DNA from: a virus
Taxonomy: Duplodnaviria > Heunggongvirae > Uroviricota > Caudoviricetes
Reading direction: 5' to 3' (one strand)
Length of the DNA stretch: 5,101 nucleotides
Virus record (IMG/VR): IMGVR_UViG_2534681604_000007
In this document: positions 1 through 5,101 of the stretch, piece by piece
Layout: every line of letters starts with the position of its first letter
How positions within the stretch are numbered: the stretch's first letter is position 1
Notes under the pieces: model-generated
The model's input: the letters and a program-made list of their open reading frames with translations, nothing else
What the model was told of the DNA's origin: nothing
The model's database searches: none
Position numbers and translations under genes: made by a program

Positions 1-1074
1 TCATTTGTCGATTTCAATTTTGTCCCATTCCCGTCCACGGCTGTCCCTATACCGCGCCGCCATTGAATCTGATTTATGCCCGAGAAGACGTTGAGCAAAC
101 TTATCGCCAATCTGGTTCCGGTATAGCCTCGCCGACAGGCTACGCAGTTCATGGAATGTTGGCGGGTCTCCATCAAATGAGAGTCCAGATGCATTTCTCG
201 CCTTTGTAAAATACTTCGATACTGTTTTCGGGGAAAGTGGTTCGTGATGCGTTGATGCAATTATTGTTTCACTGCCGCTGGCCTTCCTGCATTTCTGTAG
301 TGTATCAGCCAATGAGATATTGAGCGCGTCAATCCTTAGCGTCAGCGGAATGGCGAGCTTAGCCCCTGTTTTACCCTGTTCAATGTGAAGATGGTTGTCG
401 TTTATGTCTGACCATTTCATTCTGCACAAATCGCCGACTCTCTGCCCTGTAACGACAGCCAAATCCATCGCCAGTCTTAGCCAGATTGGGAGAGGTTCGG
501 CTGCATGGTAAATCTCGACATACTCATTAGCTGTCAGCCTTGAGCGCCTTACTTCTGACTTTGCTGTGCGGGTTGCTGTTACCGGATTCGTTGCTACATG
601 CCCCTCGGCTATTGCCTCACGAAAAACGTCAACAAGGGTTGACCTGATTAATTTTGCGGAAGCCGCTTTACCTTCTGCTACGTAGGTGTTTAGCATTGCT
701 GCCACCTCTTTCGTTGATATGTCAGCGAGCGGTTTGTCCGGCAATTTTCTTCGGATTGCCCTGATTTTGCTGGCGTAGTCGAGTAGAGTTTTCGGCCTGA
801 TACCCCTCTCGCTGAGGATTGTTTCATATCGGTCAAGCCACGCATGAAGAGTGATTACGTCAGCGCCTTTAATTCTGTCTATCAGTGACTCACGCCTGTT
901 CTCGGATAGTAACTCAATATTGGCCTGAATAGCCTCTGAAACTGCTATCCTTCTGTCTCTGCCTAATCCGAACTCTTTACCCGTCCTTGGGTCTCTGTAG
1001 CAGTAATATCCATTGTTTCTTATATAAAGGTTAGGGGGTAAATCCCGGCGCTCATGACTTCGCCTTCTTCCCAT
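1..1074 (-). CDS. int: Lambda-family tyrosine site-specific integrase (356 aa)
   Basis: Translation starts MGRRRSHERRDLPPNLYIRNNGYYCYRDPRTGKEFGLGRDRR, as I recall for the lambda Int arm-binding N-terminus. Catalytic residues are present in the expected contexts: R in GQRVGDL, K in EQGKTG, H..R in FHELRSLSARLY, H in LLGHKSD, Tyr in AARYRD. ATG at 1074..1072 lies inside xis, as in lambda; TGA at 3..1. Confidence 0.96.
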   Translation of the reverse strand: MGRRRSHERRDLPPNLYIRNNGYYCYRDPRTGKEFGLGRDRRIAVSEAIQANIELLSENRRESLIDRIKGADVITLHAWLDRYETILSERGIRPKTLLDYASKIRAIRRKLPDKPLADISTKEVAAMLNTYVAEGKAASAKLIRSTLVDVFREAIAEGHVATNPVTATRTAKSEVRRSRLTANEYVEIYHAAEPLPIWLRLAMDLAVVTGQRVGDLCRMKWSDINDNHLHIEQGKTGAKLAIPLTLRIDALNISLADTLQKCRKASGSETIIASTHHEPLSPKTVSKYFTKARNASGLSFDGDPPTFHELRSLSARLYRNQIGDKFAQRLLGHKSDSMAARYRDSRGREWDKIEIDK

Positions 1075-1270
1075 TTCTGATCCTCTTCAAAAGACTACCT
1101 GTTACTGGTCGATTTAAGTCAACCTTTACCGCTGATTCGTGGAACAGATACTCTCTTCCATCCTTAACCGGAGGAGGGAATATCCTGCATTCGCGCACCC
1201 ATCGACGAACTGTTTCAAGGCTTCTTGGGCGTCGCTGGCGTGCGTTCCACTCCTGAAGTGTCAAGTACAT
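1052..1270 (-). CDS. xis: Excisionase Xis (72 aa)
   Basis: Translation MYLTLQEWNARQRRPRSLETVRRWVRECRIFPPPVKDGREYLFHESAVKVDLNRPVTG..KRIRNGKKAKS matches lambda Xis as I recall it. Its 3' end overlaps the int start by 23 nt. GGAG lies about 9 nt upstream of the ATG at 1270..1268. Confidence 0.95.
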   Translation of the reverse strand: MYLTLQEWNARQRRPRSLETVRRWVRECRIFPPPVKDGREYLFHESAVKVDLNRPVTGSLLKRIRNGKKAKS

Positions 1271-1282
1271 CGCAAAGTCTCC

Positions 1283-1296
1283 GCAATTACACGCAA
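1283..1296 (-). promoter_or_regulatory. CII-type activator box (TTGC-N6-TTGC) of a pI-like promoter for int
   Basis: Minus strand reads TTGCGTGTAATTGC immediately upstream of the xis ATG (context TTGCGTGTAATTGCGGAGACTTTGCGATGTAC). TTGC-N6-TTGC is the established CII recognition architecture of lambda pRE/pI/paQ. The position just 5' of xis matches where lambda pI sits. Confidence 0.55.
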
Positions 1297-1322
1297 GAAA
1301 AAACCGCCATCAGGCGGTTTGG
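1297..1322 (-). terminator. Candidate intrinsic terminator between the zinc-ribbon gene and pI/xis; the hairpin is symmetric and could also act on the plus strand
   Basis: Minus strand: AAACCGCC-TGAT-GGCGGTTT followed by TTTCTT (8-bp GC-rich stem, 4-nt loop, U-run). Plus strand: AAAAAACCGCCATCAGGCGGTTTGGTGTTCTTT. Confidence 0.5.
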
Positions 1323-1360
1323 TGTTCTTTCAGTTCTTCAATTCGAATATTGGTTACGTC

Positions 1361-1672
1361 TTATTCGATGCGCACTCCTGGTATTTCGCCTTTTGATATT
1401 GCTAAGTCATAAATTTGTGCAGCACTATACCCATCTCGCATCCATGAATCTAAGGCGCGAACAGCCTCGCTACGTTTTTTATTCTCCCTCTCATTTTTGA
1501 TATCAACGAGGACATCAACGCAATTAAGGCAAATGTGGATTTTGTCCTTACATTCGATCATGGCGGCTTTACCATGATTTCCACCACACAGTGAGCATAA
1601 ATCTTCAGGGTCTAGCTGGTATTTCTGTAACGTTAGAGGGTTGAATGTTGAACAGACCATAATCATCTCCAT
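1361..1672 (-). CDS. Hypothetical C4 zinc-ribbon protein (103 aa); sits where lambda carries ea8.5, but homology was not verified
   Basis: Intact 103-codon ORF in operon orientation, TAA at 1363..1361. Cys pairs CSLC ... CLNC plus an extra Cys in IECK suggest a zinc ribbon. Three in-frame ATGs at codons 1, 3 and 5 (MEMIMV) leave the true start ambiguous. Confidence 0.65.
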   Translation of the reverse strand: MEMIMVCSTFNPLTLQKYQLDPEDLCSLCGGNHGKAAMIECKDKIHICLNCVDVLVDIKNERENKKRSEAVRALDSWMRDGYSAAQIYDLAISKGEIPGVRIE

Positions 1673-1697
1673 AAAACAAAACTCGCCGTAGCGAGTT
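1673..1697 (-). terminator. Candidate intrinsic terminator abutting the start of the zinc-ribbon gene
   Basis: Minus strand: AACTCGC-TACG-GCGAGTT followed by TTGTTTT, then directly ATG. 7-bp perfect stem, 4-nt loop, U-rich tail. Confidence 0.45.
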
Positions 1698-1731
1698 CAG
1701 ATAAAAGAAATCCCCGCGAGTGCGAGGATTG

Positions 1732-2016
1732 TTATTCATTGCTGATATTCACCTTTATCGCGAACACCTTTACCGGTTTATCGCCAAAGTGCGGATGTGT
1801 GATTGTCTTCACTTCATATCCGTCATACGGAACATCAATTCTGCGACTGGAATCGTCGCGCTTCGGATATCCCTTTGTGATAATCAGGCGGTTATACTTA
1901 CGGTTAACGAGGCGCTTTTTCCAGTAGTCATTACACAGGCGATACTCTTCCGTTTTCTCTCCGCGAATCATGGCATCGAAGTATTCACTTTTCACAGCAA
2001 GTTGCAGGTTAGCCAT
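1732..2016 (-). CDS. ASCH-like (PUA-fold) domain protein, 94 aa from the ATG
   Basis: ORF MANLQLAVKSEYFDAMIRGEKTEEYRLCNDYWKKRL...; the RGEKTEEYR segment fits the ASCH GxKxxExR signature. GGGGGA lies 7 nt upstream of the ATG at 2016..2014; an in-frame GTG at 2019..2017 is a less likely start. The ATG shares one nucleotide with the TGA of the upstream TraR-like gene (TGATG). Confidence 0.7.
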   Translation of the reverse strand: MANLQLAVKSEYFDAMIRGEKTEEYRLCNDYWKKRLVNRKYNRLIITKGYPKRDDSSRRIDVPYDGYEVKTITHPHFGDKPVKVFAIKVNISNE

Positions 2017-2237
2017 CACTTAATCCCCCTTTGTTTGCGGATAAGCTCCAGATCTTGCTGGCAACTTGCACAAGTCCGACAACCCTGAATGGCCAGTCGT
2101 CTTCGTTCATCTATCGAATCGCCACACTCACAACAATGAGTGGCAGATACAGCCTGGTGGTTCAGGCGGCGCATTTTTATTGCTGTGTTGCGTTGTAATT
2201 CTTCTATTTCTGATGCTGAATCAATGATGTCTGCCAT
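2016..2237 (-). CDS. TraR/DksA-family C4 zinc-finger protein (73 aa), likely an RNA polymerase secondary-channel binder; same size as lambda Orf73
   Basis: Translation MADIIDSASEIEELQRNTAIKMRRLNHQAVSATHCCECGDSIDERRRLAIQGCRTCASCQQDLELIRKQRGIK has an N-terminal acidic helix and CxxC...CxxC spacing typical of TraR (F plasmid) and lambda Orf73. ATG at 2237..2235, TGA at 2018..2016. Confidence 0.85.
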   Translation of the reverse strand: MADIIDSASEIEELQRNTAIKMRRLNHQAVSATHCCECGDSIDERRRLAIQGCRTCASCQQDLELIRKQRGIK

Positions 2238-2290
2238 CTTCCATTAATCCCTGAATTGTTGGTTAATACGCTTGAGGGTGAATGCGAACA

Positions 2291-2313
2291 ATAAAAAAGG
2301 AGCCTGTAGCTCC
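2291..2313 (-). terminator. Candidate intrinsic terminator between the 71-aa ORF and the TraR-like gene
   Basis: Minus strand: GGAGC-TACAG-GCTCC followed by TTTTTTATT. Short 5-bp stem but a strong U-tract. Confidence 0.4.
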
Positions 2314-2335
2314 ATGATGATTTTGTTTTTCATGC

Positions 2336-2551
2336 TCACCGTTCCTTAAAGACGCCGTTTAACATGCCGATCGCCAGGCTTAAATGAGTCGGTGTGAATC
2401 CCATCATCGTTACTGTTTCGTGGTGCTTCTTCAGTACGCTACGGCAAATGTCATCGACGTTTTTATCCGGACACTGCTGTCTGGCTTTTTTGATTTCAGA
2501 ATTAGCCTGACGGGCAATGCTGCGAAGGGTGTTTTCCTGCTGAGGTGTCAT
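2336..2551 (-). CDS. Hypothetical protein (71 aa from ATG at 2551)
   Basis: ORF MTPQQENTLRSIARQANSEIKKARQQCPDKNVDDICRSVLKKHHETVTMMGFTPTHLSLAIGMLNGVFKER. Its ATG overlaps the TGA of the 27-codon small ORF (ATGA). The track's longer 104-aa version starts at a TTG. Weak SD (GGGG about 10 nt upstream), so coupling is probably needed. Confidence 0.5.
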   Translation of the reverse strand: MTPQQENTLRSIARQANSEIKKARQQCPDKNVDDICRSVLKKHHETVTMMGFTPTHLSLAIGMLNGVFKER

Positions 2552-2631
2552 TGAACAAGCCCCATGTCGGCAAGCATAAGCACGCAGAATATGAAGCCCG
2601 CTGCCAGAAAAATGCATTCCGTGGTTGTCAT
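2548..2631 (-). CDS. Unlisted 27-codon small ORF encoding a hydrophobic, probably single-pass membrane peptide (MTTTECIFLAAGFIFCVLMLADMGLVQ)
   Basis: Hand translation of the minus strand: GGAGG-CTGC-ATG at 2631..2629, followed by 26 sense codons and TGA at 2550..2548. The ATG overlaps the methyltransferase TGA (ATGA) and its TGA overlaps the ATG of the 71-aa ORF (ATGA). Codons are common E. coli ones (CTG, GCG, GGC, TTC, GCC, GAC). Below the ORF-track length cutoff. Confidence 0.45.
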   Translation of the reverse strand: MTTTECIFLAAGFIFCVLMLADMGLVQ

Positions 2632-3185
2632 GCAGCCTCCCGACGGGCAAGAATCCTTGAGCCGAACGCCATCAACTCGCCACGATCAACGGTCGTAAAG
2701 TGGCAGTGTGTACGGGGGTATGGGTGCCAGATAATGAGCATCGAGCCTTTATTATTTCCACTGACGGGTTTCCCGGTGAGTGGGTTAATAAATGCCAGTC
2801 GTCCTGCCGTGATGAATCTGACCTCACTGGCGGTTTGTATCGCTTCATGAAACCATCCGACAGATGTGTCAGCAGGCAATAACATTACACATCCCACACT
2901 ACTGAATTTGTTTTCAGTGGCTGCCTTTTTCACAAAAGGGGAAATATTGCTGTATGGTGGATTCAACCAGACATAACCAGAGGCATATCCCATTGCTTCA
3001 GGCCATGAAGTGGTTAATGTGTTCTGCTCCTGTGAGATAAAAAGCCGACATAGTCGGTTTTTTTCGTTGGCTGCAGCATCAAGTTGAAAATCGAACTCTG
3101 CATTCAGCGCAGCAAAAATCTCTGGTGGTGTGCGCCAGCTGTCGCGATGTTCGGCAGGAGTATTGCTTCCGGTGAAATCAGTCAT
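2628..3185 (-). CDS. Phage Dam-family (T1-type) DNA N6-adenine methyltransferase, 185 aa
   Basis: Translation contains the catalytic NPPY tetrapeptide (VWLNPPYSN) and the N-terminal WRTPPEIFAALNAEFDFQLDAAAN segment characteristic of the small phage Dam family. GGGGGG lies 4 nt upstream of the ATG at 3185..3183; TGA at 2630..2628. Confidence 0.88.
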   Translation of the reverse strand: MTDFTGSNTPAEHRDSWRTPPEIFAALNAEFDFQLDAAANEKNRLCRLFISQEQNTLTTSWPEAMGYASGYVWLNPPYSNISPFVKKAATENKFSSVGCVMLLPADTSVGWFHEAIQTASEVRFITAGRLAFINPLTGKPVSGNNKGSMLIIWHPYPRTHCHFTTVDRGELMAFGSRILARREAA

Positions 3186-3336
3186 ACAGCCCCCCGTTTA
3201 TTATTTATCTCCTCAGCCAGCCGCTGTGCTTTCAGTGGATTTCTGATAACAGAAAGGCCGGGAAATACCCAGCCTCGCTTTGTAACGGAGTAGACGAAAG
3301 TGATTGCGCCTACCCGGATATTATCGTGAGGATGCG

Positions 3337-4017
3337 TCATCGCCATTGCTCCCCAAATACAAAACCAATTTCAGCCAGTGCCTCGTCCATTTTTTCGATG
3401 AACTCCGGCACCATCTCGTCAAAACTCGCCATGTACTTTTCATTCCGCTCAATCACGACATAATGCAGGCCTTCACGCTTCATGCGCGGGTCATAGTTGG
3501 CAAAGTACCAGGCATCTTTTCGCGTCACCCACATGCTGTACTGCACCTGGGCCATGTAAGCCGACTTTATGGCCTCGAAACCACCGAGCCGGAACTTCAT
3601 GAAATCCCGGGAGGTAAACGGGCATTTCAGTTCAAGGCCGTTGCCGTCACTGCATAAACCATCGGGAGAGCAGGCGGTGCGCATACTTTCGTCGCGATAG
3701 ATGATCGGGGATTCAGTAACATTCACGCCGGAAGTGAACTCAAAGAGGGCTCTGGCGTCGTTCTCGTACTGTTTTCCCCAGGCCAGCGCCTTAGCGTTAA
3801 CTTCCGGAGCCACACCGGTGCAAACCTCGGCAAGCAGGGTGTGGAAGTAGGACATTTTCATGTCAGGCCATTTCTTTCCGGAGCGGGGTTTTGCTATCAC
3901 ATTGTGAACCTCTGAAGCGGTGATGACGCCGAGCCGTAATTTGTGCCACGCATCATCCCCCTGTTCGACAGCTCTCACGTCGATCCCGGTACGCTGCAGG
4001 ATAATGTCCGGTGTCAT
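3337..4017 (-). CDS. exo: Lambda exonuclease (Red-alpha), 226 aa
   Basis: Translation [65 protein letters not shown]...GEQWR matches lambda Exo as I recall it. ATG overlaps the bet stop (ATGA at 4017..4014). Confidence 0.97.
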
Positions 4018-4799
4018 GCTGCCACCTTCTGCTCAGTGGCTTTCTGTTTCAGGAATCCAAGAGCTTTCACTGCTTCGGCCTGTGTCAGTTCTGACGATGC
4101 TCGAATGTCGCGGCGAAATATCTGGGAACAGAGCGGCAATAAGTCGTCATCCCATGTTTTATCCAGGGCAATCAGCAGAGTGTTAATCTCCTGCATGGTT
4201 TCATCGTTAACCGGAGTGATGTCGCGTTCCGGCTGACGTTCTGCAGTGTATGCGGTATTTTCGACAATGCGCTCGGCTTCATCCTTGTCATAGATACCAG
4301 CAAATCCGAAGGCGAGACGGGCACACTGAATCATGGCTTTATGCCGTAACATCCGTTTGGGATGCGACTGCCACGGCCCCGTGATTTCTCTGCCTTCGCG
4401 GGTTTTGAATGGTTCGCGGCGGCATTCATCCATCCACTCGGTAACGCAGATCGGATGATTGCGGTCCTTGCGGTAAATCCGGCATGTGCAGGATTCATTG
4501 TCCTGCTCAAAGTCCATGCCATCAAACTGCTGGTTTTCATTGATGATACGGGACCAGCCATCAACGCCCACCACCGGAACGATGCCGTTCTGCTTGTCAG
4601 GGAAGGCGTAAATTTCTTTCGTCCACGGATTAAGGCCGTACTGGTTGGCGACGATCAGCAATGCGATGAACTGCGCATCGCTGGCATCACCTTTAAATGC
4701 CGTCTGGCGAAGAGTGGTGATCAGTTCCTGTGGGTCGACAGAATCCATGCCGACGCGTTCAGCCAGCTTCCCAGCCAGCGTTGCGAGTGCTGTACTCAT
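4014..4799 (-). CDS. bet: Single-strand annealing protein Bet (Red-beta), 261 aa
   Basis: Translation [85 protein letters not shown]... matches lambda Bet as I recall it. ATG at 4799..4797 follows the gam TAA (4807..4805) by 5 nt. Confidence 0.97.
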
Positions 4800-4804
4800 C
4801 CGTT

Positions 4805-5101
4805 TTATACCTCTGAATCAATATCAACCTGGTGGTGAGCAATGGTTTCAACCATGTACCGGATGTGTTCTGCCATGCGCTCCTGAAACTCAACATCGTC
4901 ATCAAACGCACGGGTAATGGCTTTTTTGCTGGCCCCGTGGCGTTGTAAATGATCGATGCAGAGTGATTCAAACAGGTGCTGGGGCAGACCTTTTTCCATG
5001 TCGTCTGCCAGTTCTGCCTCTTTCTCTTCACGGGCGATCTGCTGGTAGTGACGCGTCCAGCTCTGAGCCTCAAGACGATCCTGAATGTAATAAGCGTTCA
5101 T
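4805..5101 (-). CDS. gam: Gam, RecBCD inhibitor; 5' end truncated by the window edge (visible part is the 98-aa GamS-equivalent portion)
   Basis: Translation [95 protein letters not shown] matches the C-terminal 98 residues of lambda Gam as I recall it. The reading frame stays open to the last base of the window. Confidence 0.92.

Follow-up and report, generated by a model that had tools for sequence, protein, structure and literature searches.

The window analysed here is a stretch of 5,101 nucleotides of Caudoviricetes DNA (IMG/VR record IMGVR_UViG_2534681604_000007), and positions 1361–3185 of it carry six intact small ORFs on the minus strand, where the initial annotation had placed six small genes. 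All ORFs at 1361–3346 lie on this strand, the one transcribed from pL, between xis (1052–1270, minus strand; Pfam Exc, E = 3.9e-41) on the left and exo (3337–4017, minus strand; Pfam YqaJ) on the right. Xis shares 98.6% amino acid identity with lambda Xis and Exo 98% with lambda Exo, and exo and bet together are 98–99.6% identical to their lambda counterparts; Int diverges more, at only 75% identity to its lambda namesake, so that the near-lambda flanks described earlier hold for xis, exo and bet and not for Int. The int, xis, exo and bet genes beside the block are all intact.

The conserved exo-xis block has been defined as orf60a-orf63-orf61-orf73-ea22 (PMC8614690). From that block orf60a, orf61 and orf73 are present (90–100% amino acid identity); orf63 and ea22 are absent and a Dam methyltransferase gene and a gene for an ASCH-fold protein stand instead, the same replacements being seen in other accepted lambdoid phages. 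The lambda scaffold that is retained comprises orf60a, orf61, a 31-codon ORF, orf73 and all five predicted terminators t1–t5, and there are three replacements: Dam for orf63, the ASCH-fold protein for ea22 plus ea8.5, and a 99-aa zinc protein for orf55. Comparison with lambda DNA by blastn revealed 95% identity over 2026–2631 (orf73, the 31-codon ORF and orf61), and only the segments 1362–1661, 1736–2025 and 2632–3182 lack a lambda counterpart. The earlier description of the genes as mostly unlike those of lambda is therefore apt for the three cassettes but not for 2026–2631, and three of the six genes proved to be lambda orthologues. Every gene has a counterpart in a sequenced phage or an E. 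coli prophage at 87–98% protein identity. The GC content of the island (46.1%) is lower than that of the adjacent Red module (52.4%), but the contrast is equally present in lambda (45.0% for the exo-xis region, 51.9% for the counterpart of the Red module), so the low GC of the island is no evidence for a foreign origin. Judged from these sequence comparisons, the reading of the region as one single foreign island is not upheld, since the lambda scaffold is intact and three cassettes have been exchanged within it. Positions 1361–3185 are the standard variable exo-xis accessory region of a lambda-like prophage, a type already described, and the region is made up of the conserved lambda scaffold and of cassettes already known from phages lambda, 21, 933W and PhiR30_1.

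The gene in the slot of orf63 (2628–3185, minus strand) encodes a phage N6-adenine methyltransferase of the Dam family (PF05869). Its scores against Pfam (E = 8.8e-57, 191.9 bits, cut-off 28.1) and against the NCBIfam equivalog TIGR01712 (168 bits, cut-off 97) both exceed the curated cut-offs, confirming the methyltransferase proposed for the island, and its translation carries the catalytic (D/N)PPY motif as NPPY at residues 75–78. The protein is 98.4% identical to a protein of phage PhiR30_1 and only 40–47% identical to the members from HP1, HK97 and T1-like phages. Characterised members of the family (PF05869/TIGR01712) have GATC as their DNA adenine motif. Membership in this family points to adenine methylation by Dam, with DNA as its most likely substrate. 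An exo-xis 'DNA adenine methyltransferase' of another family, MT-A70, is a 16S rRNA methyltransferase (PMC10810198).

On the left of Dam lies orf61 (2336–2617, minus strand; phrog_303, E = 1.4e-34) in its intact long form, with 93 aa from ATG 2617, RefSeq homologues being called as 71 aa from ATG 2551 (2336–2551). It shares 92% identity over 93 aa with 933W Orf61, and the laboratory strain of lambda carries a frameshifted version of the gene, as revealed by sequence comparison and also described in section 4.4 of PMC8614690. On the other side of Dam, orf60a (DUF1317; 3182–3346, minus strand; Pfam DUF1317, E = 7.4e-35) encodes 54 aa that are 100% identical to lambda over that length, and its tail is shortened by the Dam cassette junction. 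The interval 1361–3185 leaves out orf60a, which is a member of the same exo-xis block.

The 31-codon ORF (2244–2339, minus strand), starting at GTG 2339 or, with 29 aa, at ATG 2333, is the orthologue of lambda orf2313 (87% identity), a 31-aa ORF for which ribosome-profiling support has been reported (PMC8614690). Its product, MSMKNKIIMELQAPFLLFAFTLKRINQQFRD, had been taken for a membrane peptide. The longest uncharged run, LQAPFLLFAFTL, spans 12 residues, too short against the 18 or so or more of a membrane span, and a transmembrane helix is accordingly without support. The ORF contains a hairpin with T-run at 2313–2299 (minus strand), which is the predicted terminator t2 listed in PMC4195576 and displays covariation across four divergent loci. 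In the Enterobacter prophage L008 a related peptide lies upstream of a 58%-identical TraR, with nucleotide conservation of 73% at the small ORF versus 56% at TraR itself, and in L020 the t2 hairpin is present without the ORF; peptide and terminator are for these reasons inseparable by sequence alone.

The terminator scan revealed the other four elements on the same strand. A hairpin within orf60a (3276–3254) corresponds to the predicted terminator t1 listed in PMC4195576, and two tandem hairpin/T-run elements (1730–1709 and 1698–1679) match the predicted lambda terminators t3 and t4 of the same paper in sequence. The latter pair sits in a 74-bp linker (1662–1735, minus strand) that is 97% identical to lambda by blastn and has non-lambda cassettes on both sides. 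The fifth, a hairpin with T-run at 1301–1320 between the zinc-protein gene and xis, is the predicted lambda terminator t5 (Table 4 of PMC4195576). Lambda GenBank records hold no terminator annotation in the exo-xis region. Searching the whole window against Rfam yielded nothing meaningful, with two matches at E about 0.7.

The RNA polymerase modulator of the initial annotation is orf73 (2016–2237, minus strand), which encodes a TraR/DksA-family regulator of the RNA polymerase secondary channel and scores above the cut-off for zf-dskA_traR (PF01258, C4 zinc finger; 33.4 bits, cut-off 24.9). The protein shares 90% identity with lambda Orf73, retains all six Cys and begins MADIIDSA, which preserves the essential DxxDxA motif (D3, D6 and A8). 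Lambda Orf73 binds RNA polymerase and inhibits rrnB P1 and rpsT P2, an inhibition of transcription that requires D3 and D6, and it slows host growth and raises burst size or phage yield 3–4 fold (PMC9239242). From the 90% identity we infer that Orf73 of the window likewise binds in the secondary channel and inhibits rrnB P1. The proposal of a host-takeover locus thus finds support for orf73 only, through the published experiments on its lambda orthologue, and not for the six-gene combination.

The neighbouring gene (1732–2016, minus strand; phrog_625, E = 1e-49) encodes 94 aa from ATG 2016, the ORF reaching to GTG 2019, and its start shares one base with the orf73 stop. Homologues are named 'ASCH domain-containing protein' at NCBI, and the Pfam match to ASCH (PF04266) stays below the gathering score (14.0 bits, cut-off 21.2, residues 7–30 only). 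Foldseek comparison of the AlphaFold2 model (pLDDT 89) with the PDB gave ASCH structures as all of the top 19 matches, with probabilities up to 0.97, TM scores of 0.48–0.59 and weak E-values of 0.04 or worse; these include 3iuw, ZmASCH (5gus/5guq), 2z0t, 1xne, YqfB and TRIP4. The motif GxKxxExR, which we take to be the ASCH signature, is present as G20-E-K22-T-E-E25-Y-R27, and 40 homologues all have G20, K22, E25 and R27 unchanged. The predicted fold of the product is a PUA-like beta-barrel resembling solved ASCH structures, and the label 'ASCH-like' given to it earlier is borne out by the fold match and the motif. The protein is 88% identical to ST933Wp04 of 933W, has 32 invariant residues and is conserved across Escherichia, Klebsiella, Enterobacter and Salmonella.

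The last gene (1361–1672, minus strand; phrog_3680, E = 3e-67) is an ORF of 103 codons with a likely start at ATG 1660, giving 99 aa; GGAG lies 6 nt upstream of this ATG, at which most homologues begin. The product is 97% identical to ST933Wp03/L0063 of phage 933W, annotated 'hypothetical protein'. Its score against Pfam zf-C4_ClpX (PF06689) is below the gathering score (15.7 bits, cut-off 27, E = 0.014). The profile of the zinc protein gave five matches in the PDB, all of them ClpX, the family profile reaches proteins with genuine zf-C4_ClpX domains at library-wide E-values of 3e-5 to 7e-4, and hhalign against the ClpX zinc-binding domain (ZBD) returned a probability of 97.4% (E = 1.1e-11). 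C26, C29, C48 and C51 are invariant among homologues, in a C-x2-C-x18-C-x2-C spacing that is the same in the N-terminal ZBD of ClpX (zf-C4_ClpX; PDB 1OVX, 2DS5-8), to which the protein is about 32% identical across 38 residues (CSxCG...IxIC..CVD...I..E). Unlike ClpX, the zinc protein is free-standing at 99 aa with no AAA+ module, and it has two features of its own: YQPDPEDL, an invariant motif in the N-terminal part, and IYDAIAAGKIPxIRID, a conserved tail at the C-terminal end. AlphaFold2 gave a poor model (pLDDT 68), for which Foldseek found no match at E = 0.001 or better. A PDB match to TALE repeats (E = 9e-5) was rejected as an artefact, being the sum of 14 sub-threshold repeats. On profile evidence the zinc protein turns out to carry a predicted divergent ClpX-type zinc-binding domain, a new assignment for a gene to which no function had been assigned. 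It has 24 invariant residues and is conserved at the protein level in Escherichia, Klebsiella, Enterobacter and Salmonella. The gene is known from 933W, VT2-Sakai and other Stx-converting phages (52 phage records in total), relatives were found at 2 loci only in the species-representative genomes scanned, and it always lies 0–1 genes away from xis.

Among 5,426 complete E. coli genomes, Dam is found at this position in 244, the zinc protein with its ASCH neighbour in 132 (about 2%), the arrangement Dam-orf61-orf73-ASCH in 5 and the full arrangement in none; PhiR30_1 and 244 E. coli genomes combine Dam with orf61 and orf73. A six-gene combination that functions as one is unsupported, because the cassettes occur separately and the full set in none of these genomes. 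The idea of Dam and the ASCH protein as a writer–reader pair was set aside, the two genes being non-adjacent and together in only 5 genomes. It is possible that the six products have a common target.

Scanning 1000–3500 for a consensus sigma-70 promoter on the coding strand found none, and stops and starts overlap at orf73/ASCH, orf61/31-codon ORF and orf60a/Dam, which is compatible with an operon. For lambda and Phi24B, the Wegrzyn laboratory predicted that a weak internal promoter lies upstream of orf73 (PMC4195576), and parts of the region may therefore also be expressed independently. We consider it probable, at roughly 80%, that the block is the promoter-distal portion of the early leftward (pL) operon of a lambdoid prophage, holding shuffled, independent early accessory genes and not a co-adapted six-gene system. 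The three coding cassettes would have been exchanged between hairpin/T-run elements through recombination with other lambdoid phages, and by analogy with lambda the genes would be expressed jointly and early after induction or infection through N-antiterminated read-through. Each product would act on its own target and so tune the lysis–lysogeny outcome and the phage yield: Orf73 would enter the secondary channel of RNA polymerase and shut off rRNA and ribosomal-protein promoters, as shown for its lambda orthologue, and Dam, judged by its family, would methylate adenines, most likely those of DNA. An influence of the exo-xis region as a whole on lysogenisation and prophage induction is described in PMC3824215, and such effects are also documented in PMC8614690.

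A dedicated counter-defence island appears unlikely to us; its members would work together against host immunity, Dam hiding DNA from restriction, the ASCH protein targeting modified nucleic acid, and defence effectors being blocked by the zinc protein and the small peptide. Orphan phage methyltransferases commonly guard against restriction, and phage accessory early regions often carry anti-defence genes. Dam fits the orphan-methyltransferase model of the defence library PADLOC, and the ASCH fold belongs to a PUA-like group that includes readers of modified bases, YTH and YqfB being among the weaker Foldseek matches. However, Dam alone matches a defence-related model, none of the other island genes having a match among those of PADLOC; the cassettes assort independently; the published exo-xis phenotypes concern lysogenisation, induction, host growth and replication, and not plating on restricting hosts; and Dam, if GATC-specific, would add little protection in Dam-positive E. 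coli. An anti-defence role is plausible for the orphan Dam only.

We rate as very improbable a lysogenic-conversion ('moron') locus that is on in the repressed prophage and benefits the host, for instance by excluding superinfecting phages or by changing host physiology. The predicted weak promoter upstream of orf73 would suit such a locus, as would the other-family exo-xis methyltransferase, which lysogens express near stationary phase and which changes spontaneous induction (PMC10810198). Against it, all genes share the pL strand, their stops and starts overlap, the scan gave no consensus promoter on that strand, the terminators that punctuate the block are typical of an antiterminated operon, and expression of lambda Orf73 is toxic to growth (PMC9239242), which makes constitutive expression a poor fit. 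That the block is decaying, non-functional filler of a defective prophage is scarcely credible: the region is dispensable for laboratory growth of lambda (PMC4195576), whose laboratory strain bears the frameshifted orf61, but here every ORF and the neighbouring int, xis, exo and bet are intact, and the zinc and ASCH proteins show protein-level conservation in four genera.

The ClpX-type domain offers a concrete, testable hypothesis of ClpXP interference for an unannotated gene of clinically important prophages. The zinc protein might, as a free-standing protein, mimic the ClpX ZBD, competing for ZBD-dependent substrates and adaptors or serving as their decoy, and so redirect proteolysis by host ClpXP during early lytic growth; we put this forward as a tentative idea with the odds against it. 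Putative candidates for what it competes for may be a lambda-O-type replication initiator, substrates delivered by SspB or, because its gene always lies so close to xis, an excision factor. Mycobacterial ClpC2, a decoy of the ClpC1 N-domain, provides an analogue, and if true the proposal would constitute a phage anti-protease strategy so far undescribed for ClpX.

What appeared to be an unusual island is a textbook variable exo-xis region assembled from cassettes of model phages, and the analysis is mainly a clarification with one modest new lead; it also gives a clean example of exo-xis genes being swapped as cassettes while the linkers between them, which bear the terminators, are conserved. 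The lambda exo-xis region (orf60a-orf63-orf61-orf73-ea22-ea8.5-orf55) has the same position, strand and flanking genes as that of the window, with orf60a, orf61, the 31-codon ORF and orf73 87–100% identical and t1–t5 all kept, and differs in the three replaced slots, in its frameshifted orf61 and in Int. In the Shiga-toxin phage 933W (ST933Wp03-p12), p03 and the ASCH gene p04 form a pair at xis that is equivalent to window positions 1361–2016 (97% and 88% amino acid identity), whereas about 2.5 kb of additional genes (DUF551/Eaa, Ea22-like and others) and orf63 are present, Dam is absent from this position, and xis and int are of another type. Phages 21 and ev207 (Jouyvirus) carry orf61, the 31-codon ORF, orf73 and the ASCH gene contiguously as in the window at 95% DNA identity, but have orf63 in place of Dam and a DUF4222 gene in place of the zinc protein. 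PhiR30_1 has orf60a, Dam, orf61 and orf73 in common with the window at 97% and differs in having neither the ASCH nor the zinc protein.

The window corresponds to a lambdoid prophage early-left arm, with all genes on the minus strand: int (1-1074), xis (1052-1270), a 103-codon ORF for a zinc protein of the 933W L0063 family (1361-1672), an ASCH-like gene (1732-2019), the TraR/DksA gene orf73 (2016-2237), a 31-codon ORF (2244-2339), an orf61-like gene (2336-2551, or to 2617), a Dam-family methyltransferase gene (2628-3185), orf60a (3182-3346), exo (3337-4017), bet (4014-4799) and the start of gam (4805-5101). Pfam matches above the gathering score were obtained for xis (Exc), orf73 (zf-dskA_traR), Dam (Dam, with the NCBIfam equivalog TIGR01712), orf60a (DUF1317) and exo (YqaJ), and PHROGs 3680, 625, 54, 303, 111 and 1998 were matched. 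The initial annotation had described 1361-3185 as a six-gene accessory island between exo and xis, mostly unlike lambda and possibly serving host takeover or anti-defence. Gene calls and family matches place all six genes there; orf60a, a further member of this block, falls outside the interval.

Segment-by-segment blastn against lambda gave 77% identity over 1-1361 (int, xis and downstream), 97% over the linker 1662-1735, 95% over 2026-2631 (orf73, 31-codon ORF and orf61) and 97.6% from 3183 to the end (orf60a, exo, bet and gam), and no match over 1362-1661, 1736-2025 and 2632-3182, the zinc-protein, ASCH and Dam cassettes. Protein identities to lambda, computed separately, were 90% for orf73, 87% for the 31-codon ORF, 100% over 54 residues for orf60a, 98% for exo, 99.6% for bet, 98.6% for xis and 75% for int. 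Each of the three non-lambda segments cleanly substitutes for lambda sequence: Dam occupies the slot of lambda orf63, the ASCH gene that of ea22 and ea8.5, and the zinc-protein gene that of orf55 (lambdap35). Unlikeness to lambda therefore holds for three of the six genes, the other three being near-identical lambda orthologues. Window orf60a stops 8 codons before its lambda counterpart owing to a stop that arises at the junction with the Dam cassette and overlaps the Dam start (ATGA); E. coli prophages with this Dam have orf60a annotated in the same short form of 53-54 aa. A prophage next to torS in STEC strain CFSAN027343 has an integrase 95% identical to this one, which, set beside the lambda identities of int and xis, indicates that the integration module is itself mosaic and that the window integrase probably uses an att site differing from lambda's. 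Base composition gave no sign of foreignness: GC is 46.1% in the island and 45.0% in lambda exo-xis, with the Red modules at 52.4% (window) and 51.9% (lambda).

Each cassette has known relatives. Phages 21 and ev207 share orf61, the 31-codon ORF, orf73 and ASCH as a block at 95% identity, and phage PhiR30_1 shares orf60a, Dam, orf61 and orf73 as a block at 97%. In Shiga-toxin phage 933W the zinc-protein and ASCH genes have adjacent counterparts, ST933Wp03 and p04 (97% and 88% amino acid identity); the two occur together in 132 complete E. coli genomes, and the zinc protein is found in 52 phage records, among them VT2-Sakai and many Stx2 phages. The Dam cassette occurs, at an identity of at least 99%, in 244 of 5,426 complete E. 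coli genomes, and the Dam-orf61-orf73-ASCH arrangement in 5; none of the 5,426 carries all six genes. The zinc-protein gene has 4 kb or more of upstream sequence on 63 viral contigs; ASCH was found on only 31 of these and Dam on 2. The modules thus assort independently, and the six-gene combination is no conserved unit.

A terminator scan found 11 hairpin/T-run sites within 1000-3500, against 2.5 ± 1.5 in shuffled sequences. Five of them match, with few base differences, the elements t1-t5 predicted in lambda exo-xis by the Wegrzyn laboratory (PMC4195576 Table 4): t1 (3276-3254), t2 (2313-2299, within the 31-codon ORF), t3 (1730-1709), t4 (1698-1679) and t5 (1320-1301), all on the minus strand. 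The exchanged cassettes lie between these conserved elements, and the 74-bp linker 1662-1735, which holds t3 and t4, is of lambda type yet has a non-lambda cassette on either side, so that the region behaves as a fixed regulatory framework within which coding cassettes are exchanged. The linker resembles a conserved recombination joint, and the four spurious codons (MEMI) that open the 103-codon ORF come from it. The same scan found no consensus sigma-70 promoter on the coding strand, and stops overlap starts at orf73/ASCH, orf61/31-codon ORF and orf60a/Dam, consistent with a single antiterminated operon that, by analogy with expression in lambda, would cover the region.

The 31-codon ORF is the counterpart of lambda orf2313, whose translation was reported by ribosome profiling (PMC8614690). 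Its designation as a membrane peptide is unsupported, since the longest uncharged run is only 12 residues. At four divergent loci a hairpin with a U-run precedes the TraR gene, with a stem sequence differing in each: GGAGC/GCTCC in the window and lambda, GGTCGC/GCGGCC in an Enterobacter prophage (L008), AGGCCTCT/GAGGCTT in L007 and GGAGC-TTCG-GCTCC in L020. This covariation argues that t2 is functional as a terminator. L020 lacks the small ORF, and this stretch is more conserved in nucleotides than TraR itself, so that selection on the peptide could not be told apart from selection on the terminator. Translation of the small ORF (2244-2339) through t2 (2292-2313, minus strand) could modulate termination.

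Host takeover is solidly supported for orf73 alone. Lambda Orf73 binds RNA polymerase, inhibits rrnB P1 and rpsT P2 in vitro and in vivo, slows host growth and raises phage yield 3-4 fold, with D3 and D6 required (PMC9239242), and window orf73 retains its DxxDxA motif and six cysteines. The orf61 gene is intact, with 92% identity over 93 residues to 933W Orf61; lambda's annotated orf61 is a frameshifted, split form (lambda 3134-3446 against window 2336-2617), and the N- and C-terminal halves of the 93-aa protein align to two separate lambda reading frames. That frameshift had been noted, and a homeodomain-like fold predicted for the long form (PMC8614690). The ASCH protein scores under the Pfam cut-off; an ASCH fold was accepted from its model (pLDDT 89), whose top 19 PDB matches are all ASCH structures, and from the GxKxxExR signature invariant in 40 homologues. 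An ssRNA nuclease, an ac4C amidohydrolase and a DNA binder are among the ASCH relatives with solved structures.

Membership of PF05869/TIGR01712 is confident for the Dam protein, which has NPPY at residues 75-78; an anti-defence role is no more than plausible, and for this protein alone. This allele shares only 40-47% identity with the HK97, HP1 and T1-like members. Caution on its substrate comes from phage phiPA8, whose exo-xis "DNA adenine methyltransferase" methylates 16S rRNA and controls spontaneous induction (PMC10810198); that enzyme is of the MT-A70 family, unlike the window's. Nothing indicated that the six genes function together as a unit. The initial annotation was partly confirmed in its observation and partly supported in its interpretation, firmly through orf73 for host takeover and no more than plausibly through Dam for anti-defence. 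The region, already described as the exo-xis accessory region, here brings known cassettes together in a new recombinant arrangement.

The single new lead, a modest one, is a ClpX-type zinc domain in the previously unannotated 933W-family gene. Its product likely starts at ATG 1660 (99 aa), which has GGAG 6 nt upstream and is where most homologues begin. The family has few members, with 38 clusters at 90% identity and 29 representatives among 1.84 billion proteins; those that are named all come from Enterobacteriaceae and are annotated "hypothetical". It combines an invariant core (YQPDPEDLCSLCGG...KDKIHIC..C), a variable helical linker and a conserved C-terminal tail, IYDAIAAGKIPxIRID. Several results point to a zinc-binding domain of ClpX type: its C-x2-C-x18-C-x2-C spacing is that of ClpX, weak matches come from Pfam zf-C4_ClpX and NCBIfam ClpX, ClpX zinc-binding domain entries are the only matches in a PDB profile search, and the family profile reaches bona fide zf-C4_ClpX-domain proteins at library-wide E of 3e-5 to 7e-4, hhalign against the alignment of those domains giving a probability of 97.4% (E 1e-11). 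An AlphaFold2 model was poor and gave no information. Six prophage contexts, with four or five different xis/int families, place the gene 0-1 genes upstream of xis. Across the compared loci (L007-L009, L092, L094-L096) it stays near xis, whether of lambda Exc, 933W, HTH_17, DUF1233 (with P22-type int) or AlpA (with P4-type int) type.

One database protein (P0161, 257 aa) carries the last 74 residues of the zinc protein behind 183 unrelated N-terminal residues; this is probably an artefact of a frameshift or of gene calling and not a genuine domain fusion. Others of about 100 aa (P0164-P0174) share the core PDP...C..C...GPDG..IC..C..LC and end in another conserved motif, LYDAGYRK, which suggests that stand-alone ClpX-zinc-domain proteins form a larger family that is still unnamed. 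Literature on phage relatives or effectors of the ClpX zinc domain, searched also by the Pfam name zf-C4_ClpX, yielded no published study of such a protein. That the zinc protein acts as a decoy against the host ClpX N-domain is an attractive hypothesis, though an unlikely one; the idea is patterned on ClpC2, outlined in PMC10030653 as a decoy of ClpC1.
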